Positions 10,310-41,233 of a DNA stretch of 41,233 bases are shown piece after piece. The DNA lies in the IMG/VR virus record IMGVR_UViG_3300028777_000007, positions 1 to 41,233 of that record; one strand, 5' to 3'. The DNA is from a virus. Lineage: Duplodnaviria > Caudoviricetes. Both the position numbers and the translations under genes were made by a program. Numbering within the stretch: position 1 is the stretch's first letter; each line of letters starts with the position of its first letter. Under the pieces are notes generated by a model that saw only the letters and a program-made list of their open reading frames with translations, ran no database searches and had not been told where the DNA came from.

Positions 10310-10342
10310 GACGGGGCCTGCGTTGTTGGTGGGTACAGTGCA

Positions 10343-10371
10343 ACTATAGCCCCTATAGTTGCACCGTGCAA
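10343..10371 (-). promoter_or_regulatory. sigma70-like promoter embedded in a 12-bp inverted repeat
   Basis: TTGCAC-17nt-TATAGT-TGCAC; inverted repeat GTGCAACTATAG-ccc-CTATAGTTGCAC at 10338-10364. Confidence 0.75.
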
Positions 10372-10385
10372 ATATTATTTTATCA

Positions 10386-12554
10386 CTAGAAGCGTGCCAC
10401 CATCGCTTCACAGAACGCGACCCAGTCCTCAATGGACACAACACCCTTCTTGAGAGCGTCAACGCCCTGTATCCTAACTCGGGCTTGGCCGATGTCCTTG
10501 GCCCCGCACTCCTTGATCATAGCAATGAGATCGGCCTTTTCCTGTCTTGGCAACAATCTTCCATCACTAGGCATGAAGGTCTCTACGAGCAGCGACATTT
10601 GCATGCGCCAGTCACCGGTCTTGGCGCGGAATGCTTCCTCCCCCGTCTTCTTAAGCATCTGCCAGATGTCAGCCTTGGCCCAGAATTGTCCCATGCGGCC
10701 CACCACATTAGACTCGCTTATGTATTGCTCGGCGGTGGACTCTGAGTGCTCAGTAGCTGAGCGAGTGTCCCCTGCTCTGAAGAGTTGATACCCGTATCGC
10801 AGGAGGGTAGCGCCGCATTCTTTGATGACATCACGGTTGGAGGTGAGTCTTCCATAGTAGTGATGAACTCCAACAACTTCAAGCGTAATGAATCTACGCT
10901 CTCCGTCGCCTTTTGAAGATCTGATATAGCCTCTGTTAGTGTCGACAGTAGTGAGGAATATTGAGGAATGTCGTGTGCATTCACTCGCATATTCCTTATA
11001 GAGCTCTCGCACATCCGTAGATCGTGTCGTGCTAAGGGTAAAGATGTTCTGCTCAACCTGTTTAGCATTGCCGTCAGCGGGATTGTATTCATCGAAGACT
11101 CCTAATAGATTGTCTCGGCAAGCCTTATACAGCTCGCCGAGTTCGGATTTGGCCCCATCTTTGGCGAGCTTCCCTACTCTCGGTCGGTAGCCCCAGTCGC
11201 CCAGTGCGGCTATAAAGGAATGCGGAAAATTTGACTTCCCACAGCCAGACGGGCCGACAAGTGCGCAGGCCCATTGGACGTCAACATCAGGATCAAGCGA
11301 CCAAAGTGCAACGATATCCCGTGACATGCGTATAATCGTCTCAGCCGTTTGCTCTTGAGTGAGCGGACCGGTGACTTTAATGCCCTCAGTGATAAGTCTA
11401 TTTGCCGCAGCATATGCTTGGTCCTCGGTAACTGGCTCTTGGCGCTCCAATAGCTCCAGCGGTATGCTGGTCTTGCGAGTGCTGAGTAGGTAGTTCAGGG
11501 CATCCTTGGCGAAGGTGTTGCGCACGCTTTCTCCATTGCCACGGTAGGCGCTGGTCTCTAGCCAAGTACGGAAGTCCATAACCAACGAGTCGAAGTCCTT
11601 GGGCCCAGCGTCAATATTGCTCATATCGTAGATCTGGTTACTAATGTCCATGGCTAGTTGGGCCCACTTTGGATAGCGGGTCAATCGCATGTAATTATCC
11701 AGGGTATGGACGGCGCTGATGTTATGAAACTTATCTTCCTTGGTCTCTAACTGGTACTCAGCTATTAGGAAGCCAGGAGGTACGAAGTCAGTTATCTCAA
11801 CGCCGGTCTGCTGTCGTAGTATCTCCATTGCCCAGTTGGCAGCGATCTGCCCTTGGGGCTGCTCCATGCACCAGTCGTCCCAGCCTACACCGCGCTCGTT
11901 CTCTGGTACTTCTAGGAACACAACTTTGATATCGTCTCGAATGAGATTGATCCAGCCTTTAAGTCCTTTAGCTGCTTCTTGAATTCCGGGCTTGTAGGAG
12001 ATATCACCGTCAAAACAAACAAGAAGTTTTGCGCCAAGTGCCATGTTTTTGATGGTGTGTTCGAGTTGCTCACCCATCTTCCCATTCTTTGACCATCCGG
12101 CGCATCCGCTAATAGCCAGCCCCGGTATTTCCAGAAACTTCGTCGCCAGTTCCGCGCTCGTAATCTTCTCATGTAACATCACCACGTTAGCGTGACATAT
12201 AACATCTTTCGGCTTGGTGAAGTGTAGGAACTCGCCCTTGAACATCTGCAAGAACTTGGGGCGGTCGGCGTACACTTGGGCCAGTTTACCCCGCACAAAA
12301 TAAAGGGCCTGCTCGGGGTAGTTGCAGACCCGTAGATGTCGTTTGGTATCGTCTGGTAGGCCGTCCTCGCCCTTGACCATAAAGGCCCAGCCCTGCAATG
12401 GATAGTCAGTACCATCCTTGAGGCTGAGCCCGTGGTTCTTGGTGCAGAATGGAATGATGGGACAATCTTGTATGGTAAGGCACCGAGCTTCTAAATACTC
12501 AGCTGCCTCTTGTAAATAGGTACTTCCGGCATCTGTAAAAAATTTAGTTGCCAT
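10386..12554 (-). CDS. primase-helicase (Toprim/DUF3854-like N-terminus plus VirE/VapE-like P-loop ATPase)
   Basis: HEK..SA, VCFDGD and GWDDW Toprim-like motifs; GPSGCGKS Walker A, VFDE Walker B, GERRF arginine finger. Confidence 0.8.
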   Translation of the reverse strand: MATKFFTDAGSTYLQEAAEYLEARCLTIQDCPIIPFCTKNHGLSLKDGTDYPLQGWAFMVKGEDGLPDDTKRHLRVCNYPEQALYFVRGKLAQVYADRPKFLQMFKGEFLHFTKPKDVICHANVVMLHEKITSAELATKFLEIPGLAISGCAGWSKNGKMGEQLEHTIKNMALGAKLLVCFDGDISYKPGIQEAAKGLKGWINLIRDDIKVVFLEVPENERGVGWDDWCMEQPQGQIAANWAMEILRQQTGVEITDFVPPGFLIAEYQLETKEDKFHNISAVHTLDNYMRLTRYPKWAQLAMDISNQIYDMSNIDAGPKDFDSLVMDFRTWLETSAYRGNGESVRNTFAKDALNYLLSTRKTSIPLELLERQEPVTEDQAYAAANRLITEGIKVTGPLTQEQTAETIIRMSRDIVALWSLDPDVDVQWACALVGPSGCGKSNFPHSFIAALGDWGYRPRVGKLAKDGAKSELGELYKACRDNLLGVFDEYNPADGNAKQVEQNIFTLSTTRSTDVRELYKEYASECTRHSSIFLTTVDTNRGYIRSSKGDGERRFITLEVVGVHHYYGRLTSNRDVIKECGATLLRYGYQLFRAGDTRSATEHSESTAEQYISESNVVGRMGQFWAKADIWQMLKKTGEEAFRAKTGDWRMQMSLLVETFMPSDGRLLPRQEKADLIAMIKECGAKDIGQARVRIQGVDALKKGVVSIEDWVAFCEAMVARF

Positions 12555-14218: not shown

Positions 14219-14256
14219 TTGAGGCACCTTTGCTTGGTTTTGGTTAACGTGGTGCA

Positions 14257-14286
14257 ACTATAGCCCAGCCTATATAAGCAGTGCAA
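14257..14286 (-). promoter_or_regulatory. leftward sigma70-like promoter
   Basis: TTGCAC-18nt-TATAGT-TGCAC. Confidence 0.75.
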
Positions 14287-14318: not shown

Positions 14319-14347
14319 TTGCACTACTATATAGGCTGGGCTATAGT
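14319..14347 (+). promoter_or_regulatory. rightward sigma70-like promoter
   Basis: TTGCAC-17nt-TATAGT-TGCAC. Confidence 0.8.
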
Positions 14348-14389
14348 TGCACCGTACCAACCAAAACCACTCCAGCAAGGGGCTACAAA

Positions 14390-16427: not shown

Positions 16428-16456
16428 TTGCACCCCGGCCACAAGCCTGCTATAGT
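16428..16456 (+). promoter_or_regulatory. sigma70-like promoter
   Basis: TTGCAC-17nt-TATAGT-TGCAC. Confidence 0.8.
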
Positions 16457-16485
16457 TGCACTGTAATTAACCAAGGGCTAGTATC

Positions 16486-17908: not shown

Positions 17909-18244
17909 ATGCGTATGGATGAACTGACAGCTAAAGTCCTGGGGTGGGCCAATGATCGGAACCTTATCATTGGATCTACGGTCGACAAGCAGTTTGTTAA
18001 ACTCGTTGAAGAGGTCGGGGAACTGGCGGCCGGTTTGGCGCGAGGAAAGAGTGAGGTTATTGATGATGCGCTCGGTGACATCATGGTCATCGCCATCATC
18101 ATGTGCGCCCAGCGTGGCAGTACCCCAGCAAACATTCTTGAAGATGTATGGAATATCATCAAGGAACGTAAAGGTAAGATGGTTGACGGCGTCTTCATTA
18201 AAGAAAACGACGCCATGATGGCGACTGGGAGTAATGGGCAGTGA
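17909..18244 (+). CDS. MazG-like all-alpha NTP pyrophosphohydrolase
   Basis: WA.DRNL...KQ..KL.EEVGELA....DALGD.......IK.RKGKM.DG.FIK. Confidence 0.88.
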   Translation: MRMDELTAKVLGWANDRNLIIGSTVDKQFVKLVEEVGELAAGLARGKSEVIDDALGDIMVIAIIMCAQRGSTPANILEDVWNIIKERKGKMVDGVFIKENDAMMATGSNGQ

Positions 18245-18351
18245 CCACGTTCCAAAAACTCGGCCTCTGGTTCGTTGTGGGCCCCCGCTTCAGCGCAAGT
18301 GGGCCCAATCTAGAGACCGTGCTGGCGTTTTACCACCGACACGCTTAGCAG

Positions 18352-18380
18352 TTGCACCATTGTATGCACTGCGCTATAAT
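18352..18380 (+). promoter_or_regulatory. sigma70-like promoter of the replication operon
   Basis: TTGCAC-17nt-TATAAT. Confidence 0.8.
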
Positions 18381-18416
18381 AACAGCGTACCAACTAACAG
18401 CAACGAGGATATAACC

Positions 18417-18764
18417 GTGACTGAACAAACAGAAAACCTGACACTGGAAGGCTGGGCTGCTGCTCAATACGAGCCCTACGAGTTCCCGCAAGAAAAGCTC
18501 CTGGAGTTGCAAGCGCTGTTCGTGCCAGTGGGTGAGTTCTTGGTCGCTAACAAGATCCCCTTCGGCTTCTTGGTGCAGAGCGCGCTGAACCGCGATGGTG
18601 GTGTAGCCATCAACGGCTCTACCTTCATGGGCCCCATTGGCCGCACTGGCGTTGATATGCTCAACTTAGCTATGATCAGCGGCCAAGATCTAAGCGCCGA
18701 GGAAGTGTTCATCATGCTGGCGCAGGCGTTCCAGGCTAAGGCCGAGAACCAAATCGTTATCTAA
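18417..18764 (+). CDS. hypothetical protein (GTG start refined)
   Basis: RBS gagga before GTG 18417; the longer ORF start would run through the promoter. Confidence 0.7.
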   Translation: MTEQTENLTLEGWAAAQYEPYEFPQEKLLELQALFVPVGEFLVANKIPFGFLVQSALNRDGGVAINGSTFMGPIGRTGVDMLNLAMISGQDLSAEEVFIMLAQAFQAKAENQIVI

Positions 18765-23909: not shown

Positions 23910-23930
23910 GATGGTCCACGGTGCTATAGT
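23902..23930 (+). promoter_or_regulatory. sigma70-like promoter
   Basis: TTGCAT-17nt-TATAGT-TGCAC. Confidence 0.75.
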
Positions 23931-23990
23931 TGCACCGTAGCCAATAAATACAGAGCTACTCCTTATTCTAAAACACGTTGGAGATTCAAA

Positions 23991-24629
23991 ATGACTGATG
24001 GTGCCGTTGAACCTACCGTAGAAGAACTCCTGGCCGCTGCTGCTGTCGCCACTGAAGCCAACGCTGCCCCCAAGGCCAAGAAACCCCGCACTCCGAAACT
24101 GGATGCTGAAGGCAACGCGGTCGTCAAGCCGCCTCGGGCCCCCAAATTGTACGCTCAAGTGAACGCCGATGGCACCCCGATCCTGGACGAAGCTGGCAAT
24201 CCAGTGATGGGCGAAGGCAAGCCGACCAAGGCTCCGAAAGAAGCCAAGCTGTACCCGCAGGCTGCTGAAGACGGCACTCCTGCGCTGTTTGACACTGGCG
24301 AGCCGGTTATGGGCCCGTATCTCACTCGCTACAAAGAGCCGAAAGCCGCCAAGGCCCCGCGCCTGGACGCTGATGGCAACCCAATCGTGCGTCAATCCAA
24401 TGTCTTCCCCCTCGACGCGAAGTTGTTCAAGGTTGAGGGCAAGGGCACCGGCTACCGTGAAGGCAGCAAGCGCAAACAGAACTTCGACCTCATCCCGGCC
24501 GAGGGTATCACTGTCGGCGACTACTACGCCGCTGGCGGTGGCAAGTCCGTAGTTCACACGTTTGCTGTTTGGTACGTGAACGAAGATGAGTCTGTTCGTA
24601 TCGAAGTTGGCGAGCCCGCTGCTGAGTAA
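23991..24629 (+). CDS. hypothetical protein with internal D.(D/E)G(N/T)P repeats
   Basis: RBS ggag; codon usage resembles highly expressed genes; has its own promoter and a 3' hairpin. Confidence 0.8.
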   Translation: MTDGAVEPTVEELLAAAAVATEANAAPKAKKPRTPKLDAEGNAVVKPPRAPKLYAQVNADGTPILDEAGNPVMGEGKPTKAPKEAKLYPQAAEDGTPALFDTGEPVMGPYLTRYKEPKAAKAPRLDADGNPIVRQSNVFPLDAKLFKVEGKGTGYREGSKRKQNFDLIPAEGITVGDYYAAGGGKSVVHTFAVWYVNEDESVRIEVGEPAAE

Positions 24630-24696: not shown

Positions 24697-24864
24697 ATGA
24701 CTAAACAATACAGTGAAGATGATTGCTGGCGGAAGGCCAACCAAGAGTGGGAGATGGCTGGGATGGCCCGCCGAGATGGCGATCATAAGGACGCTGAGAA
24801 GCGTATGGAAGCGGCGCGTCGCTGGGAAATCAAGGCTAGGCGCATAGCGCGAGGTGAAGAATGA
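24697..24864 (+). CDS. 55-aa helical hypothetical protein (not in the ORF track)
   Basis: MTKQYSEDDCWRKANQEWEMAG...; RBS gagga; ATGA overlap with the glycosyltransferase. Confidence 0.65.
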   Translation: MTKQYSEDDCWRKANQEWEMAGMARRDGDHKDAEKRMEAARRWEIKARRIARGEE

Positions 24865-26108
24865 AGATTTTAATAACCTTTTTCCCGATAGATGATTTCG
24901 GGGGAATAACTAATCATAACGAGCAGCTATGCGCTGGGCTCAAAGAGCTCGGCCATGATGTCACCGTTAAGCTTCTCATGTGGCGTGATACGGCCCCCAG
25001 GACGGTAGCTGGGGGCCATGACGGATGGGAGCACGCTGGTCTGTCGTTTGATCAGCGCAAGGGCTACAGCTGGATAGCGCGTGACATCATCCCGTACAAA
25101 GGCGCTGAGAACTTGGCGCGTTGGAAGGAGTACGCAAGTGGCTACGACCTTATCATCTGGCAAGTGGCAGTTCCGACTAAACGAGCCGAGAATCGCGGCA
25201 ATACGGATTGGATTGAATTGTACAGGACATCTGTTCCTCAGGTCGCGGTCATTCATGACGGTAACTTCCTCGATTCTTACCCGTGGCTATCTCTTATCCG
25301 CGCCCGTCTGTCAGGACTCGCGTGTGTTCATACTTGCGCGTTTAATTCTGCGAAGAGCATTGACGTCAAGTCAGCTCTTATCGTTAACCCCCAGGAAATC
25401 GGTGCTGGGCCGGATCTAAGCCGAGAGGCATTCTTCCGGCGTCGTAAGGGCTTCCTCAGCTTGCAAACGTTTAAAGCCTGGAAGCGTGTACCCGAGCTCG
25501 CACAGGCCGTGCCGCATATGGGAGTAGGTATGACCAAGCTCCTAGCTGGCAAGGGCATTGACTACTATTATTTGACCAGCAAGGACAAATGCAAGTGGCC
25601 CGGTGCGTGGGACTCAGCGCTAAGTGCTGGCATGGAGTACCTTGATGTAGTTAATAACGGCCAACGAGACACCCTGCTGAGCAGCGTGACGACACTCATT
25701 GACGCCAGTTGGTCCAAGAAGTACGCCGGGATCGGGGGCCACTTCAACCGAGTATCCATTGACGCCATCAAGATGGGGGCCATGCCGGTCGTCCGTGATC
25801 TGGCGATAGGTACAGGCGATGACGAATTATTCAAAGATAATATTAACTGTCTGGTTATACCTTGGGACGCCACGAGCGGAGAGTTCGGCCACTTGGCAAC
25901 GGAGTACGCCAATCTACCATATGAGCAGTACCTGCGAATTATGGAGAAGGCTGTTGATCTGCTACCTCTTTTCGAGCGCAAGGCCATCGCCCAGCAATTC
26001 ATCGATCTGGGTACTGGGCGTGGTGCATCTAGTGTAGGCATCATGGACCCAGCGGTGTACACTAACAGCTTAGTGGCACTAAACAATTTCTTCGGGGATA
26101 GGACATGA
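24861..26108 (+). CDS. GT-B fold glycosyltransferase, putatively DNA-modifying
   Basis: MKILI......GG......L..GL.ELGHDV.V N-terminus; K.V..L..A; DAI.MGA.PVV C-terminal domain motif. Confidence 0.75.
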   Translation: MKILITFFPIDDFGGITNHNEQLCAGLKELGHDVTVKLLMWRDTAPRTVAGGHDGWEHAGLSFDQRKGYSWIARDIIPYKGAENLARWKEYASGYDLIIWQVAVPTKRAENRGNTDWIELYRTSVPQVAVIHDGNFLDSYPWLSLIRARLSGLACVHTCAFNSAKSIDVKSALIVNPQEIGAGPDLSREAFFRRRKGFLSLQTFKAWKRVPELAQAVPHMGVGMTKLLAGKGIDYYYLTSKDKCKWPGAWDSALSAGMEYLDVVNNGQRDTLLSSVTTLIDASWSKKYAGIGGHFNRVSIDAIKMGAMPVVRDLAIGTGDDELFKDNINCLVIPWDATSGEFGHLATEYANLPYEQYLRIMEKAVDLLPLFERKAIAQQFIDLGTGRGASSVGIMDPAVYTNSLVALNNFFGDRT

Positions 26109-26893
26109 GCAATGAATCGGCCGCCATCTACTTCAATTACATACGCGAGCGACAAGCTATATTTGACCTCCGTCGTGCTGGGGGCCCAGCTCCTTGGACC
26201 AAGGATCCAATTCTACAGGCGCATCACTTCTGTAATAACCGCCGCGAGGACGACCGCGTCACCAAGGAGTTGCGTAAAGTTGTTGTAGACGCCAATACGC
26301 CCTTTAACGCGCTGCCCTATGCCTATGCATTGGCACGGCTGTTTAACCGCGCCAGCACGCTCTCCAACGCGCTGGCGGGGCATGTTGAAGCGGTAAAGGC
26401 CCAGCGCGCACGGGGCGAACTGGTATTCCATGTCGCGTATGTGGTTAGCACTTGCGGCAAGTCAATGGACAAGGTGGACTATGTTTTCGACGTCGCTAAT
26501 GAGGTCTCTGGATTATTTGTACCGACAAACTCCCTCGCTGCTGCATTCAAGGCGTTGCGCTCCGTGGATGGTCTCGGCTCCTTCATGGCTGGTCAGATTG
26601 TGGCGGATCTCAAGAATGATCGATATCTGGCGGAAGCATATGATTGGAAGACTTGGTCTTGTCCAGGGCCAGGCAGCAAGAAAGGACTTGAATACATCTT
26701 CGACCAGCAGATCACCGACGGCAACTACGATCTCTTTATGGGGTTTCTGCAGCAAGCATTGCCGGAAGACATACGCGCCATGAAGCTCCATGCGCAGGAT
26801 CTTCAAAACACTCTATGCGAGTTCAGTAAATACTGGCGGTATCTGAACAAGATGGGGGGACGCCGCCGTGTCTTCAATCCGCGAGTGGTATGA
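26105..26893 (+). CDS. aGPT-Pplase1 family helical protein (thymine-hypermodification associated)
   Basis: ER..I...R..G...PWT.DPIL....F.N..RE.DR; G.G.F.A.Q...DL; GPG...GL; D.QN.LCEF.KY. Confidence 0.85.
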   Translation: MSNESAAIYFNYIRERQAIFDLRRAGGPAPWTKDPILQAHHFCNNRREDDRVTKELRKVVVDANTPFNALPYAYALARLFNRASTLSNALAGHVEAVKAQRARGELVFHVAYVVSTCGKSMDKVDYVFDVANEVSGLFVPTNSLAAAFKALRSVDGLGSFMAGQIVADLKNDRYLAEAYDWKTWSCPGPGSKKGLEYIFDQQITDGNYDLFMGFLQQALPEDIRAMKLHAQDLQNTLCEFSKYWRYLNKMGGRRRVFNPRVV

Positions 26894-26933
26894 CAAAAAG
26901 GTTAAAGACTCTAACGAGATGGGAGATGGTCTT

Positions 26934-27899
26934 ATGTTTACAGTTGAAGTTAACGGTGTGAATGATGCGTACGACAAAATCGTGCGCATGGTTGACCGCA
27001 TGGGCAGTGTATCCTCCAGCCGCAACGGAGCGGTTAAGGCGCTACCGGGCCCCCTACTCATGCGCTGCAATTGGCCCAAACGTAGAGTGCTATTCGATGA
27101 AAAACGTGATGCCAACCCGGTCTTCCATCTTATGGAGTCTCTTTGGATGCTTGCTGGGCGCAATGATACAGCGTTCGTTCAGCAATTCAACTCCAATATT
27201 GCCTCGTACAGCGATGACGGTACGTCGTTTAACGCGGCGTATGGATTCCGCTGGGCCAACCACTTCGGATACGATCAACTAGATATCGCGGTCGCAATGC
27301 TACGCGCCAACCCGGATGACCGGCGCGTAGTAATTAGCATGTGGGACGCAACACAAGACCTGAACTCGGCCAGCAAGGACATTCCCTGTAATACTCAGAT
27401 CATGCTGCGCTGCATCATGCAGGCCAAGACGCCAGTGCTGCACATGACCACGGTGAACCGCTCCAACGACATGGTGTGGGGCCTCTGCGGCGCCAACTTC
27501 GTACACCTCACCATTCTGCACGAATGGCTAGCCTCGGCGTGCGACATGCACCTTGGTCAGTGGAACCATATGTCCAACAACGCCCACCTCTATGAGCGGC
27601 ATTGGAAACTCGCCAAGGGCATACAGGCTAACCCCCACTTGTCCTATGCCCCTTATGAGGCGTATAGTACAATTTGCGAGGGTGGGGCCCAACTGTTCCG
27701 CAAGGAGTGCAACGCTCTCGTAGATGGGCAGGAAGATGACTTTGACGACCTGTTCATGTATAACACCGTGGCCCCCATGCTGAGTTCATGGAGGGCGTAC
27801 AAAGCAGGGGACAAGGCCACTGCGCTCTACGAGGCATCGTGCATTGATGCTTGGGACTGGCGCAAGGCAACCATTGAATGGTATAAACGTAGGAAGTGA
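26934..27899 (+). CDS. thymidylate synthase homologue, dUMP hydroxymethylase-like (start refined)
   Basis: SRNG, RDANP.FHL.E.LW, DIPCN (catalytic Cys), RSND..WG..GAN, H.YE.H; RBS gggag before ATG 26934. Confidence 0.85.
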   Translation: MFTVEVNGVNDAYDKIVRMVDRMGSVSSSRNGAVKALPGPLLMRCNWPKRRVLFDEKRDANPVFHLMESLWMLAGRNDTAFVQQFNSNIASYSDDGTSFNAAYGFRWANHFGYDQLDIAVAMLRANPDDRRVVISMWDATQDLNSASKDIPCNTQIMLRCIMQAKTPVLHMTTVNRSNDMVWGLCGANFVHLTILHEWLASACDMHLGQWNHMSNNAHLYERHWKLAKGIQANPHLSYAPYEAYSTICEGGAQLFRKECNALVDGQEDDFDDLFMYNTVAPMLSSWRAYKAGDKATALYEASCIDAWDWRKATIEWYKRRK

Positions 27900-27901
27900 T
27901 T

Positions 27902-28414
27902 ATGCTCAAACATATTAAAGTGGCCCGCATCGCCGGTAACGTCAAGCGCTACCACACCAGCGAGTTGCTGAAAGAAGAGAAGGTGGGCCAGCATACGTTC
28001 AATATGCTGAATATTCTGATGATACTTACAGACCGGCAAATGACCAACAAGTTGATGATGGCCTGCATTACGCACGACATGGGCGAGTACATGACCGGCG
28101 ACATCCCAAGCCCGGTTAAGAAGCTGGCCCCAGAGCTGAGAGCCACGCTCAACGAGCTTGAAGACAAGGCCATGCGCGAAGCCCATGTCGGCTGGTTCCC
28201 AGAACTAAGCGAGTGGGAGTACAAATTGCTCAAATTCGCCGATAACCTTGACGGGCTACTGAAATGCACCGAAGAGATGCGAATGGGCAACAAAACGGTG
28301 CAGTGGGTTGGAGAGAATTATTTGGCCTATCTGCGCAAAATGCCCGATCTGGGCCCAACCATGAATGACCTCATTAACGAAGCCGAAGTGGAGTTCAACC
28401 AAAATGCCTACTGA
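27902..28414 (+). CDS. HD-domain deoxynucleotide phosphohydrolase (YfbR/DatZ-like)
   Basis: VKRYH...E.VGQH, HD.GE..TGDIPSPVK, LK.AD.LD. Confidence 0.85.
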   Translation: MLKHIKVARIAGNVKRYHTSELLKEEKVGQHTFNMLNILMILTDRQMTNKLMMACITHDMGEYMTGDIPSPVKKLAPELRATLNELEDKAMREAHVGWFPELSEWEYKLLKFADNLDGLLKCTEEMRMGNKTVQWVGENYLAYLRKMPDLGPTMNDLINEAEVEFNQNAY

Positions 28415-28712
28415 GAACTACGAACAGATCAGCCTAATTGCTCAGAGCGATGTAGCTACGCTCCAAGAGAAGGGCAAGACATACGGCTCCAGCTGGAGCA
28501 ACCGGGGTGGGGTGGGAGCCTTCATGATGGCGGCCCGCAAATGGGACCGCATTGAGAACCAATGTAAGGCCAAAGGTTACGACATCTTCGAGGCGTGCCA
28601 TGATAGTGCTGAAGACGGTATTCTTGATGATATTGCTGATTTGCGTGCTTACTTGCTTCTTATTGAGTCGAAAGTGATGGATCTGTATTCCCCCGGCGCC
28701 AATAAGATCTAA
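28404..28712 (+). CDS. Nmad1/DUF1599-like nucleotide-modification-associated protein (start refined)
   Basis: L..K...YG.SW...G..G......K.DR......D.I.DL..Y..L. Confidence 0.75.
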   Translation: MPTENYEQISLIAQSDVATLQEKGKTYGSSWSNRGGVGAFMMAARKWDRIENQCKAKGYDIFEACHDSAEDGILDDIADLRAYLLLIESKVMDLYSPGANKI

Positions 28713-28717
28713 GAACT

Positions 28718-28744
28718 AGGCCCCTAATTAGGGGCCTTTTCTTT
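28718..28744 (+). terminator. terminator between the convergent genome arms
   Basis: Palindrome AGGCCCCTAATTAGGGGCCT followed by TTTCTTT. Confidence 0.8.
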
Positions 28745-28745
28745 G

Positions 28746-29966
28746 TCAGACTACATACCTCGCGTCGGCCGCGAAGGCCCCAGACCAAATGGCCGCCCCG
28801 GTGCCAGTAGCCGTCAGAGATAGTTCTGTGCCCCAAGGGCTAGATGTCCCCGTGCCAGTAGCTAAGTTCGCAGTCCCGAACTGAACGTATACCATGCTAG
28901 GCGTTGTCCTCATTTGAGCCGGAAAAATGCTATGACAATAGTACAGCTGACCGCTTGTGACGTTACCAGAGAAGATCAGAGGCTGGAAGCCAGAGGAACT
29001 CTCACGGTTGACAAGGAAGCGATAGCACCGTAGCTGCTCCAAGTATACATCAGGTATTGTGAACGCAGTCATTACGGACCCCGCCTCCAGTTTAACCCCC
29101 CAGAAACGATAGGTTCCAGAGTGCTGGCCAAGGGCCCCAGTAAGCGAGGACGTGCCAGTGTTGGAGTCCATCCAAATCCGTATGCAGGTGAAGTCAGACG
29201 ATGAGTCAGTGCCAAGAGTCTTACCGGAGACAGAAGGCATGGTGAACGTGCAAGAATATCGTGCCCAACCTGAAGCGGCCACCAAAGATATCTGCTGAAT
29301 GTATGTCTCAACTGCTGTTGATGGTGAACCAGTGGTGCCGAAGTTCTGCAATACACTGACCGCTATGGCGTTGTTCACACTCACGTTGGCCCAGAATGAG
29401 AACGTCACACTTTGCCCAGCAAGAGTTCTGACACTCTCAATGGGGAAATTCAGGTTGCAGTAGTTAGCCGCCGAGTTAACAGAAGTGACTACTGTCTCAA
29501 TATACGCCTGAGCATCCTGCACTGGCGGCGAAGTGCCCGGAGTGAACGCGATACGGTTGCAGGTATAAGTAGTCCCAACACTCTTCTCGCACACTTGGTC
29601 AGCGACGTATCGGGCCCCCGTGCCAGAGGTGAACGTGATGCCACCTTGGTACCATTGCATGGCGCCGTTTACCAGATAGTTGGGGTTCGAAATCCCCTGC
29701 ATCAAGTTCTGATCAATCTTAGGAAGCGTGACATTAGCGTCCAAGATATCCGTGGTGGTCACGGCATTGGCGGCTAGTTTGTTGGTCGTAACCGAGTTAT
29801 CCGCCAGCTTGGCGGTAGTAACAGAGCCATCAATGGACAGGCTGGCAGTTAGCGCCGTAGCGATGTCATTTAGCGTGTTATTAGCCCACGCGCTGGAAAT
29901 AGTGGTGCCTGTTACCACGGGGTTAAGCGCTGGCAATGTATAGTTGCCGAAAATATCACGAGGCAT
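28746..29966 (-). CDS. tail fibre/spike
   Basis: MPR...G.Y.LP..NPVV.GTTIS..WAN.TL.DIA.ALT.S anchor; VTTAKLA 10-aa repeats; carbohydrate-binding-like domain starting NYLVNG. Confidence 0.85.
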   Translation of the reverse strand: MPRDIFGNYTLPALNPVVTGTTISSAWANNTLNDIATALTASLSIDGSVTTAKLADNSVTTNKLAANAVTTTDILDANVTLPKIDQNLMQGISNPNYLVNGAMQWYQGGITFTSGTGARYVADQVCEKSVGTTYTCNRIAFTPGTSPPVQDAQAYIETVVTSVNSAANYCNLNFPIESVRTLAGQSVTFSFWANVSVNNAIAVSVLQNFGTTGSPSTAVETYIQQISLVAASGWARYSCTFTMPSVSGKTLGTDSSSDFTCIRIWMDSNTGTSSLTGALGQHSGTYRFWGVKLEAGSVMTAFTIPDVYLEQLRCYRFLVNRESSSGFQPLIFSGNVTSGQLYYCHSIFPAQMRTTPSMVYVQFGTANLATGTGTSSPWGTELSLTATGTGAAIWSGAFAADARYVV

Positions 29967-40124: not shown

Positions 40125-40291
40125 AATGGCGTTCCTCTAGAAAGTGATTATTTGCCTATTCCGTCTAGAGGGTTAGCCTGATGTAGAGGCCGGTTAGCGG
40201 CGTACAAAGGAGGTAGGTGGCATTAGTATATAGCAGTTGCGCAGAACATACAACACCGTATAAACTAATATTTTAGCATTGGTAAATAATC

Positions 40292-40789
40292 ATGTCTAAA
40301 GTAAAGCCCCACCCAAGTCAAGAATTACTTCAAGAATGGTTTACAGATATGGGATCATATCTAAAGTGGAAGAAGAGAGGGAAAGGTATAAAAATAGATA
40401 GAGCAGGTAGCCTAGGAAGTGACGGGTATATTCAGCTCACATTTCAAAGATCAAACTATAAAGCCCACAGACTAATGTGGATACTTAGGAACGGGCCCAT
40501 ACCAGATGGTCTAGAAGTTGACCATATAGACGGTGACAGATCTAATAATCTTGATTCTAATCATAGATTAGGAACAAGATCACAAAACGCTAGAAATATA
40601 ATAGCGATGAAATCTAATACTAGTGGTCATACTGGCATAAGCCCTCACTGCGGCAAATGGGTGGTGCATATACGTCTCAATAAAAAGCCCACTCACGTGG
40701 GCTATTACGAAACTATTGAAGAGGCTATTGAGGCTAGGGATGAAGCATGGGCTCTTCACTATGGTGAGTTCACTTGCCGGGGTTATTAA
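40292..40789 (+). CDS. HNH homing endonuclease with an AP2-like C-terminus (allele B)
   Basis: YKAHRLMW, EVDHIDGDRSNN..N.R..TRSQN..N, NTSG..G, KW...I....VG.Y.TIEEA. Confidence 0.9.
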   Translation: MSKVKPHPSQELLQEWFTDMGSYLKWKKRGKGIKIDRAGSLGSDGYIQLTFQRSNYKAHRLMWILRNGPIPDGLEVDHIDGDRSNNLDSNHRLGTRSQNARNIIAMKSNTSGHTGISPHCGKWVVHIRLNKKPTHVGYYETIEEAIEARDEAWALHYGEFTCRGY

Positions 40790-41204
40790 CTCCTTTAACG
40801 CGCTCAATGGTCTTAGAGCCACTGTACCCCAGATAGCCAGCGGTGAAGGTATACCAGAGTTCTACAGGAATTGCGCTGAAGCCTTTGTTCACATTCATGA
40901 ACAAAAGGTCCATCTTCGTTGGGAAGAAGAGGCCCAGGATAGGGGCCCCCACCACCATGAAGACCACGATGCCGTAGAACAAGTAGAGGAAGCTAGGGCG
41001 CGCCCGTGAAGTCCATGGGTCAGTGCTGTTAGCTTCTGCCAGAATAGCGGACATCTGAAGCTGTAGTTGCGTCAGCTGACCATTCTGGTCCAAGCGCATG
41101 AGCTCCAGTTGGGCCGCAGCATTCGCCGCTGGGTCCGGTATTAGCTTATCGATCAGGTTCTTACCTATGTCAAACAGACCGCTGACGATCGCGATGGGAA
41201 TCAT
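40770..41204 (-). CDS. holin (allele B): same N-terminal half as allele A, different C-terminal half
   Basis: Protein identical to 633-1067 through RARPSF, then diverged; also 144 aa and also ends NPGK. Confidence 0.8.
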   Translation of the reverse strand: MIPIAIVSGLFDIGKNLIDKLIPDPAANAAAQLELMRLDQNGQLTQLQLQMSAILAEANSTDPWTSRARPSFLYLFYGIVVFMVVGAPILGLFFPTKMDLLFMNVNKGFSAIPVELWYTFTAGYLGYSGSKTIERVKGVNNPGK

Positions 41205-41233
41205 ATATCACCCTATATTCTTTGCAGGATTGA

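Follow-up and report, generated by a model that had tools for sequence, protein, structure and literature searches.

Phages M6, ViI, PhiW-14 and SP10 replicate with 5-hydroxymethyluracil (hmU) in their DNA yet package thymine: their virions hold no hmU, all of which ends either as a hypermodified base or as thymine (PMC8989533; PMC numbers stand throughout for excerpts of the papers concerned). A kinase of 5-hydroxymethyldeoxyuridine (5-hmdU) adds one phosphate, and clade-2 proteins of the aGPT-Pplase family are the transferases (PMC8989533). Each of the four phages encodes one or both aGPT paralogues; gp186 of SP10 is a fusion of the kinase with clade 1, and clade 2 was not detected there (PMC5889632), and the clade-1 protein of M6, gp55, is dispensable for the glycine adduct (PMC8989533). 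We found no paper that names the enzyme turning hmU into thymine in these phages. The subject of this analysis is a cluster of six genes at positions 24697 to 28712 of the virus record IMGVR_UViG_3300028777_000007, all 41,233 nucleotides of which were analyzed and are called the window below. A GT-B glycosyltransferase (GT) here stands in the position of the kinase, and a survey of related loci shows kinase, GT-A and GT-B replacing one another in a single slot beside the clade-1 aGPT-Pplase (aGPT1). This last point goes beyond an earlier reading of the cluster made from its letters (the sequence-only reading), which had proposed a kinase-less pathway with direct glycosylation of hmU. The interpretation toward which we lean is that the GT marks the hmU of the DNA with a stable sugar and that aGPT1 acts independently of its partner, perhaps turning leftover hmU into thymine.

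The cluster runs, entirely on the + strand, in the order 55-amino-acid open reading frame (ORF), GT, aGPT1, thymidylate synthase (TS) homologue, HD enzyme, Nmad1-like protein. The GT (24861..26108, 415 amino acids) is predicted to be a DNA hmU glycosyltransferase; it belongs to a nearly virus-only family and occupies the kinase slot. Then come aGPT1 (26105..26893), a clade-1 aGPT-Pplase with a fold like that of helix-hairpin-helix (HhH) glycosylases (PF18723, E 5.3e-37, above cut-off), and the TS homologue, a predicted dUMP hydroxymethylase (26934..27899; PF00303, E 3e-24). The HD-domain nucleotidase, YfbR/DatZ-like (27896..28414; PF12917, E 1.2e-19; phrog_7076, E 8.3e-17), is the orthologue of PaMx11 gp52 (E 4e-16) and would drain dTMP or dTTP. 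The small Nmad1/DUF1599-like protein occupies 28404..28712 from its probable start, its longest ORF beginning at 28365. Its name, given in the sequence-only reading, keeps the backing of an Atlas lead alone (score 0.96 to a viral cluster in which 11% of the members carry PF07659); by Pfam, PF07659 is present in 0 of 16 members of the family, which occurs in 41 loci. The 55-amino-acid ORF (24697..24864) is coupled to the GT and has no homologue in six-frame translations of any locus searched; it is probably a passenger. Start and stop codons overlap as ATGA or GTGA at three joints (55-amino-acid ORF/GT, GT/aGPT1, TS/HD), so that coordinates and strand agree with the description of a tight, mostly overlapping run, except that TS and aGPT1 probably do not overlap: the longest TS frame opens at 26868, and a start at 26934 is more likely because homology to M6 begins at residue 23 and GGAGA lies upstream.

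The TS homologue is 39.5% identical to M6 gp58. Its D171, C174, D201 and N210 (numbered from 26868) correspond to ThyA L143D, C146, D169 and N177 and are the same in 75 of 75 aligned homologues, itself included. Residue rules at ThyA positions separate dUMP, dCMP and 5-hydroxy-dCMP enzymes (PMC13326640); the acidic residue at L143, together with C146 and N177, predicts a dUMP hydroxymethylase, and with D169 and N177 kept the protein is without the D169N/N177D of the RB69/DLP3-type 5-hydroxy-dCMP synthase. The RSND and GAN motifs picked out in the sequence-only reading are there; the GAN Asn falls on N177 of E. coli ThyA in the alignment, with a one-residue shift that the M6 enzyme has too. No dihydrofolate reductase family was found among the 63 window ORFs, as that reading also had it. 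A MazG-like pyrophosphatase elsewhere in the window (17909..18244, + strand; PF12643, E 3.3e-4; phrog_1992, E 6.1e-36) is a candidate dUTPase/dTTPase for the pathway.

The absence of a gene from the window is meaningful, since the genome is apparently complete. Bases 1-127 recur identically at 40127-40253, which makes a circular unit genome of ~40.1 kb; the viral record is rated 100% complete; and family scans of the window ORFs find portal, terminase, capsid, lysis and replication genes. No 5-hmdU kinase is found in six frames by M6 gp54 or PaMx11 gp49 (best E 0.018, in the polymerase frame), and none in the window by PF18748, by a profile of 19 kinases or by a relative's kinase, with controls detected; the sensitivity of the kinase profile is limited, in that PF18748 scores the true PaMx11 kinase below cut-off. 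The sole Walker A motif in a real window gene lies in a primase-like ORF (10386-12554). A 176-amino-acid ORF at 18234-18764 that gave a weak kinase score (E 0.36) was rejected, having no P-loop and no family. The clade-2 amino acid:DNA transferase (ADDT/AADT, PF18724) and the GT-A profile have no match in the window, and the 63 window ORFs include no TET/JBP thymine dioxygenase family by Pfam. The claims that the cluster lacks a P-loop hmU kinase, and that no pyridoxal phosphate (PLP) or radical S-adenosylmethionine (SAM) enzyme is present, have thus stood, the former through profile searches that came up empty with four queries and the latter through the absence of both families from the 63 window ORFs. 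What the same reading said of the described systems fares less well: the kinase does not pyrophosphorylate 5-hmdU, adding one phosphate only, and substitution of the base by aGPT-Pplase-family transferases is proven for clade 2, while the clade-1 M6 gp55 can be dispensed with (PMC8989533).

The occupants of the slot were compared in the best 80 of at least 544 confirmed loci found with aGPT1. The slot holds GT-A in 49, the kinase in 16, GT-B in 4 (2 of these being contigs already present in the GT-B-seeded set described below) and none of the three in 11; two are never found together. The GT-A is TAGT (PF20691) and includes gp22 of phiJL001, a cultured phage of alphaproteobacteria that carries the GT-A version and has no kinase match. 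Five of the 11 loci without any of the three have another slot ORF of 300-370 residues that is GT-like by eye (L090 4594-5502, L103 6902-8020, L137 383-1345, L155 7012-7968 and L159 6977-7978, the last with a radical SAM/SPASM gene); the three of these that were scanned gave no Pfam match. Pairs of close relatives catch the exchange in the act. L001, with GT-B, and L088, with GT-A, are colinear to the left and right of the slot (73-76% DNA identity), with aGPT1 75% and TS 84% identical. L099, with the kinase, and L101, with two GT-like genes, one of them TAGT, have aGPT1 proteins that are 90% identical; for L128 (GT-B) and L120 (GT-A) the figure is 78%, with the swap site 4-7 kb downstream of aGPT1. 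The swaps among kinase, GT-A and GT-B are recent and clean. A quick aGPT1 tree (117 rows from 157 matches, after removal of rows with <75% coverage and of same-label rows >90% identical) needs 8 label changes for GT-B, 16 for GT-A and 8 for the kinase, of which well-supported branches force at least 6, 11 and 6, respectively. Two unrelated GT folds and a kinase known to act on the hmU hydroxyl replace one another, which is most simply read as a shared target, that hydroxyl, for all three. Four complete genomes of 38-47 kb (G050, G054, G056 and G063, with loci L094, L104, L106 and L161) carry kinase, aGPT1 and TS and no ADDT; these phages may package phospho-hmU or use clade 1 as a transferase.

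The GT-B has 351 homologues. Starting from it instead, we read the best 80 of 106 viral loci and the best 80 of 273 metagenome loci (three of the latter being the window's own contig or near copies). The viral loci contain aGPT1 in 70 of 80, TS in 75 and both in 69, so that the trio of GT, aGPT1 and TS for which a neighborhood survey had been proposed does recur; an FkbM methyltransferase is present in 25. Both aGPT1 and TS accompany the GT-B in 54 of the 80 metagenome loci; counting only the 48 loci of 7 kb or more, both are there in 41. Kinase, GT-A or ADDT occurs in 0 of the 80 viral and 0 of the 80 metagenome loci. The absence extends to whole parent records: among the 48 larger ones of the 80 viral loci PF18748 finds a kinase in 0, including 0 of 22 that are at least 90% complete, with both controls matched; a relative's kinase used as query has matches in 0 of 24 GT-B records and 0 of the 11 with GT-A, against all 5 kinase controls; and PF18724 finds no ADDT over cut-off in 21 GT-B records. 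Among 185,579 cellular species genomes there is a single GT-B locus, and the same contig has aGPT1 and TS. The GT-B genome G039 has TS and no aGPT1 in the 82% of the genome at hand. In relatives the GT has additional neighbors, namely genes for a second GT, a radical SAM/SPASM enzyme or an FkbM methyltransferase, which is what the tailoring of a sugar would lead one to expect. FkbM methyltransferases and cytidylyltransferase-like genes (20 loci) lie near the GT-B cluster, e.g., at L007 9294-10004, L043 7067-7774 and L078 15500-15928, and a radical SAM/SPASM gene adjoins the GT in GT-A and GT-B loci alike (L095 1411-2532, L098 6925-7983, L048 11835-12794, L057 11326-12309), where it is a candidate sugar-tailoring enzyme.

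That the slot gene of the window is a GT-B enzyme, asserted from its sequence, is borne out by an AlphaFold model (pLDDT 96.3, from an alignment of 117 sequences) and its comparison with known structures. T4 alpha-glucosyltransferase (AGT), which has been solved with hmU-containing DNA, matches it (1ya6, VIA Z 26.5, root-mean-square deviation (rmsd) 3.9, 341 residues aligned) at 13% identity. Pfam gives GT4 matches below threshold only and no match to PF11440, the T4 AGT family; a profile search of PDB sequences gives none; and the top Foldseek matches are envelope and small-molecule GT4 enzymes. The Atlas neighbors are mostly viral clusters, 7 of 30 of them AGT-family (PF11440). The invariant H132-D133 of the GT family falls on AGT H114-D115 in a weak alignment; since the hhalign alignments of GT with AGT and of aGPT1 with PaMx11 gp46 are not significant, residue equivalences drawn from either are leads only. 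The structural neighbors, T4 AGT and GT4-like enzymes, point to a retaining, alpha-linking enzyme, and because the fold points to an alpha linkage the product would be J-like rather than base J itself.

The best structural match of aGPT1 is PaMx11 gp46 (8z2m, Z 9.4, rmsd 4.3, 201 residues aligned), with a Z that is middling for a helical protein. Ogg, AlkA and EndoIII structures match as well (Z 6-8), and Foldseek finds no match at E 0.001. Cys238 is invariant (69 of 69) and lines up, in a weak alignment (hhalign 0.6%, not significant), with the catalytic Cys247 of gp46. No active-site residue was found to track the slot partner: the pairs that precede the Cys (E-H, Q-N, Q-F) occur with different partners. 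The near constancy of aGPT1 when its partner changes leads us to read its substrate as hmU itself. A divergent aGPT1 is present in some 37-39 Microbacterium phage records, e.g., Pikmin (L166 1798-2676), where ThyX lies nearby and the stretch read lacks a classical TS.

What was observed directly is the gene content, the folds, the conserved residues, the three-way swap and the failure to detect a kinase or a clade-2 transferase; we infer the reactions from these, as follows. To judge by active-site residues and orthology, the TS homologue would convert dUMP to 5-hydroxymethyl-dUMP (hm-dUMP), while the HD enzyme, probably with MazG and Nmad1, would drain thymine nucleotides; host kinases would make hm-dUTP, for incorporation by the phage PolA. 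After replication, as fold and slot exchange suggest, the GT would take a sugar from a nucleoside diphosphate sugar and attach it to some of the hmU, at the hydroxymethyl oxygen. The donor is probably UDP-glucose, presumably the host's because the window has no sugar-nucleotide genes, and the linkage is probably alpha. The glycoside would be the final mark and would block restriction enzymes. In the third and least secure step aGPT1 would act via Cys238 on hmU itself, most likely turning unclaimed hmU into thymine whichever modifier is present. A kinase-less, hmU-based pathway and a kinase-independent role of aGPT1, both proposed from the sequence, draw support from the locus surveys and slot swaps, the former also from the TS residues and kinase searches. 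The proposal that the GT sugars hmU directly, as in base J, survives in that hmU is the most plausible target; the likeness to base J is by analogy only, JGT being GT-A and this enzyme GT-B. The more specific version, in which a widespread family of phage GT-B enzymes marks hmU-DNA with an alpha-linked counterpart of base J and aGPT1 turns hmU into thymine in DNA without prior phosphorylation, we put forward tentatively, doubting it rather more than we credit it.

Unlikely, and still the most considerable of the alternatives, is a GT that serves as activator: it would load hmU with a leaving group, either a sugar or a sugar-phosphate, which Cys238 of aGPT1 would displace; the outcome would be thymine or else an adduct with an amine or amino acid, and mature DNA would retain little sugar. 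The mutual exclusion of kinase and GTs in one slot would follow naturally, and the invariant Cys238, with its weak alignment to a catalytic Cys, would fit; 4 of 5 near-complete kinase genomes have aGPT1 without ADDT, which, with the SP10 kinase-clade 1 fusion, suggests that clade 1 can act on an activated base. It is established chemistry, however, that a glycoside is a poor leaving group; an aGPT1 that stays 90% identical through a change from kinase to GT-A is hard to reconcile with a pocket for phosphate and sugar; and the second GTs and methyltransferases beside the GT suit a lasting glycan. If instead the GT makes a stable glycosyl-hmU, aGPT1 could add a second substituent at other hmU sites, or could be a reader or repair glycosylase rather than a maker of thymine. 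The HhH-glycosylase-like fold with its Ogg/AlkA/EndoIII matches, and the fact that the clade-1 domain is the only aGPT detected in SP10, lend this some color, but the invariant Cys sits at the catalytic position of AADT and not at the site of the glycosylase catalytic residue, and gp55 is not needed for the M6 glycine adduct; we consider it quite improbable.

More improbable again is a GT whose acceptor is not polymeric DNA (free hm-dUMP or hm-dUTP, host lipopolysaccharide (LPS), a virion protein), leaving plain hmU or T in the DNA. The Foldseek ranking of envelope and small-molecule enzymes, and a genome, G036, that has the GT without TS, would accord with this; yet what the GT trades places with, one gene for another, is a DNA kinase or a DNA glycosyltransferase of the TAGT family (PF20691); its surroundings in the examined loci are genes of DNA metabolism; and cellular genomes almost never carry it. 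Lastly, a divergent kinase might have been missed, PF18748 being an imperfect detector and some 40 window ORFs lacking a family, or the TS might be an ordinary dTMP or hm-dCMP synthase. Four kinase queries that detect their controls and find nothing in the window, the lack of a spare Walker A, the D at the L143 position and the N at N177 make this the remotest of the possibilities.

Several observations weigh against a stable hmU glycoside made by this GT and a partner-independent aGPT1. GT4 enzymes for LPS, teichoic acid and small molecules (e.g., HepE, TarM) tie with T4 AGT in structure comparison (Z 24-27), and the hhalign alignments of the GT with T4 AGT (2%) and BGT (0.1%) are not significant. 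Family scans and a six-frame search find no dCMP deaminase or dNMP kinase among the window ORFs. The ADDT-less kinase genomes already mentioned bear on aGPT1. A complete 81-kb genome, G036, has GT-B without TS or aGPT1, and the counts overstate independence because the loci include near-duplicate phages. Searches of cultured phages by tblastn with two different GT-B queries gave no match. Finally, several T-containing palindromes are depleted in the window too, e.g., TGGCCA (6 observed vs 33.5 expected). As to the G036-type arrangement, it is possibly a TS-free route to a modified base; in L053 (6716-11395) and L040 (6960-11359), GT-B follows radical SAM and B12-binding radical SAM genes, beside a long replicative-polymerase-like gene.

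The palindromes belong to a restriction-site signal to which we give little weight. For 6-base palindromes of the window with 0, 1, 2 and 3 T, the mean log2 ratios of observed to expected are -1.41, -0.78, -0.46 and -0.09, and in the window as in five close relatives the depletion is stronger for T-free palindromes than for T-rich ones. T-free 4-mers are strongly avoided in 3 of 6 larger GT-B genomes, and not in the other 3 or in 3 module-free controls. The avoidance is no more than suggestive and would fit partial modification. Selective sparing of TpC-containing restriction sites is unsupported (p 0.083 in the window, with 7 contexts tested). CCGG and GCGC are nearly lost (log2 -4 to -7) in the GT-B genomes G046, G030 and G009; the module-free psg01 lacks CATG instead.

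A few features frame the cluster. The 16-base motif GCTATAGTTGCACCGT stands at 23923..23938 (+ strand), ahead of a 212-amino-acid ORF and the cluster; it has 6 copies in the window at up to 2 mismatches, vs 0.02 expected (10335-10367, 14249-14264, 14340-14355, 16449-16464 and 23923-23938), twice as divergent pairs where gene blocks switch, and is likely a phage promoter or operator. A hairpin resembling an intrinsic terminator (28718..28747, + strand; 8-pair stem and T tail) closes the cluster, a role suggested by its position, such hairpins numbering 4 in the scan vs 4.7 in shuffled sequence. The 212-amino-acid protein, rich in Lys, Ala and Pro (23991-24629), precedes the slot, as do similar proteins in close relatives and phiJL001 gp18-like proteins in many GT-A loci; it is possibly a DNA-binding partner. 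The window ends, 1-1096 and 40127-41233, are two variants of an HNH-holin region: 127 identical bases are followed by distinct HNH alleles (161 and 165 amino acids) and then by sequence that is 94% identical. Two strains occurring together probably gave rise to an assembly bubble here. By capsid, the closest cultured relative is Stenotrophomonas phage BUCT555 (74%), which carries adenylosuccinate synthetase and DUF550 in place of the module (L194 13954-15328), a pair that we take to be a 2-aminoadenine module; this virion lineage seems to trade base-modification modules.

A 2019 paper stated that there was as yet no report of glucosylated 5-hmdU in a phage genome (PMC6449724), and we found no later chemical report of glycosyl-hmU in a phage; a neighborhood prediction may be contained in Iyer et al. 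2013, in bioRxiv 2023.12.21.572611 (Fig. S10) or in the figures of PMC9599517. No description of the GT-B family or of clade-1 activity was found in the excerpts of PMC13458397, PMC11472151, PMC13229309, PMC7824862, PMC10201439, PMC11946847, PMC12686479 and PMC4111573. T4 beta-glucosyltransferase does glucosylate hmU, but only in single strands or opposite G (PMC4111573); a glycosylating enzyme that accepts hmU in an ordinary hmU:A duplex would be of use as a tag. For the phages that replicate with hmU and package T, aGPT1 is the constant partner that fits as converter, and the swap data make the question of the hmU-to-T enzyme testable. If this is true, thymidine hypermodification comes down to a fixed core of hydroxymethylase, aGPT1 and nucleotide-pool enzymes plus a single exchangeable slot, into which either phosphate or sugar chemistry is plugged.

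The nearest relatives of the module are in M6 and PaMx11, whose TS (~40%), aGPT1 and HD enzyme are orthologous and stand in the same order of slot gene, aGPT1, TS and HD (PMC5889632, PMC8989533); M6 alone has gp56-57 between aGPT1 and TS. In both phages the slot gene is the kinase, whereas the window has GT-B in its place and is without kinase, AADT, PLP, radical SAM and flavin adenine dinucleotide (FAD) enzymes; their product is an amine, and that of the window is predicted to be an O-glycoside. In phiJL001 (gp19/gp22/gp24/gp25) and HTVC023P-type pelagiphages, aGPT1, a glycosyltransferase, a dUMP-hydroxymethylase-like TS and HD occur together (PMC9599517), the GT-A enzyme gp22 being unrelated to the GT-B of the window; the excerpts of that paper note the GT-A version and make no mention of kinase loss or swapping, or of chemistry. 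With kinetoplastid base J, made by JBP1/2 and JGT, what is shared is the predicted end product, hmU in DNA with a sugar on its hydroxymethyl group. Base J is beta-glucosyl and present on ~1% of T; it is the work of a thymine dioxygenase together with JGT, which aligns with GT-A enzymes, whereas the hmU of the window would come from the nucleotide pool and the GT-B fold points to an alpha linkage. The Bacillus phage SP-15 and the Cobetia phage Carin-5 (PMC12686479) also carry sugars on the T-coding base of phage DNA, SP-15 on a dihydroxypentyl-uracil scaffold with phosphoglucuronolactone that the window does not have (PMC5889632), and Carin-5 with its own block of nucleotide-sugar genes, which the window also lacks (PMC12686479). 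T4, with dCMP hydroxymethylase and AGT (PF11440), follows the same logic of a TS-family hydroxymethylase and then GT-B on DNA; its acceptor is 5-hydroxymethylcytosine, as against the hmU predicted for the window from N177, and it is without aGPT1 in the region examined. As its sequence would have it, then, the module of the window works like T4-style glycosylation set on an M6-style hmU core, and stands outside both the kinase/AADT pathway and the base J system.

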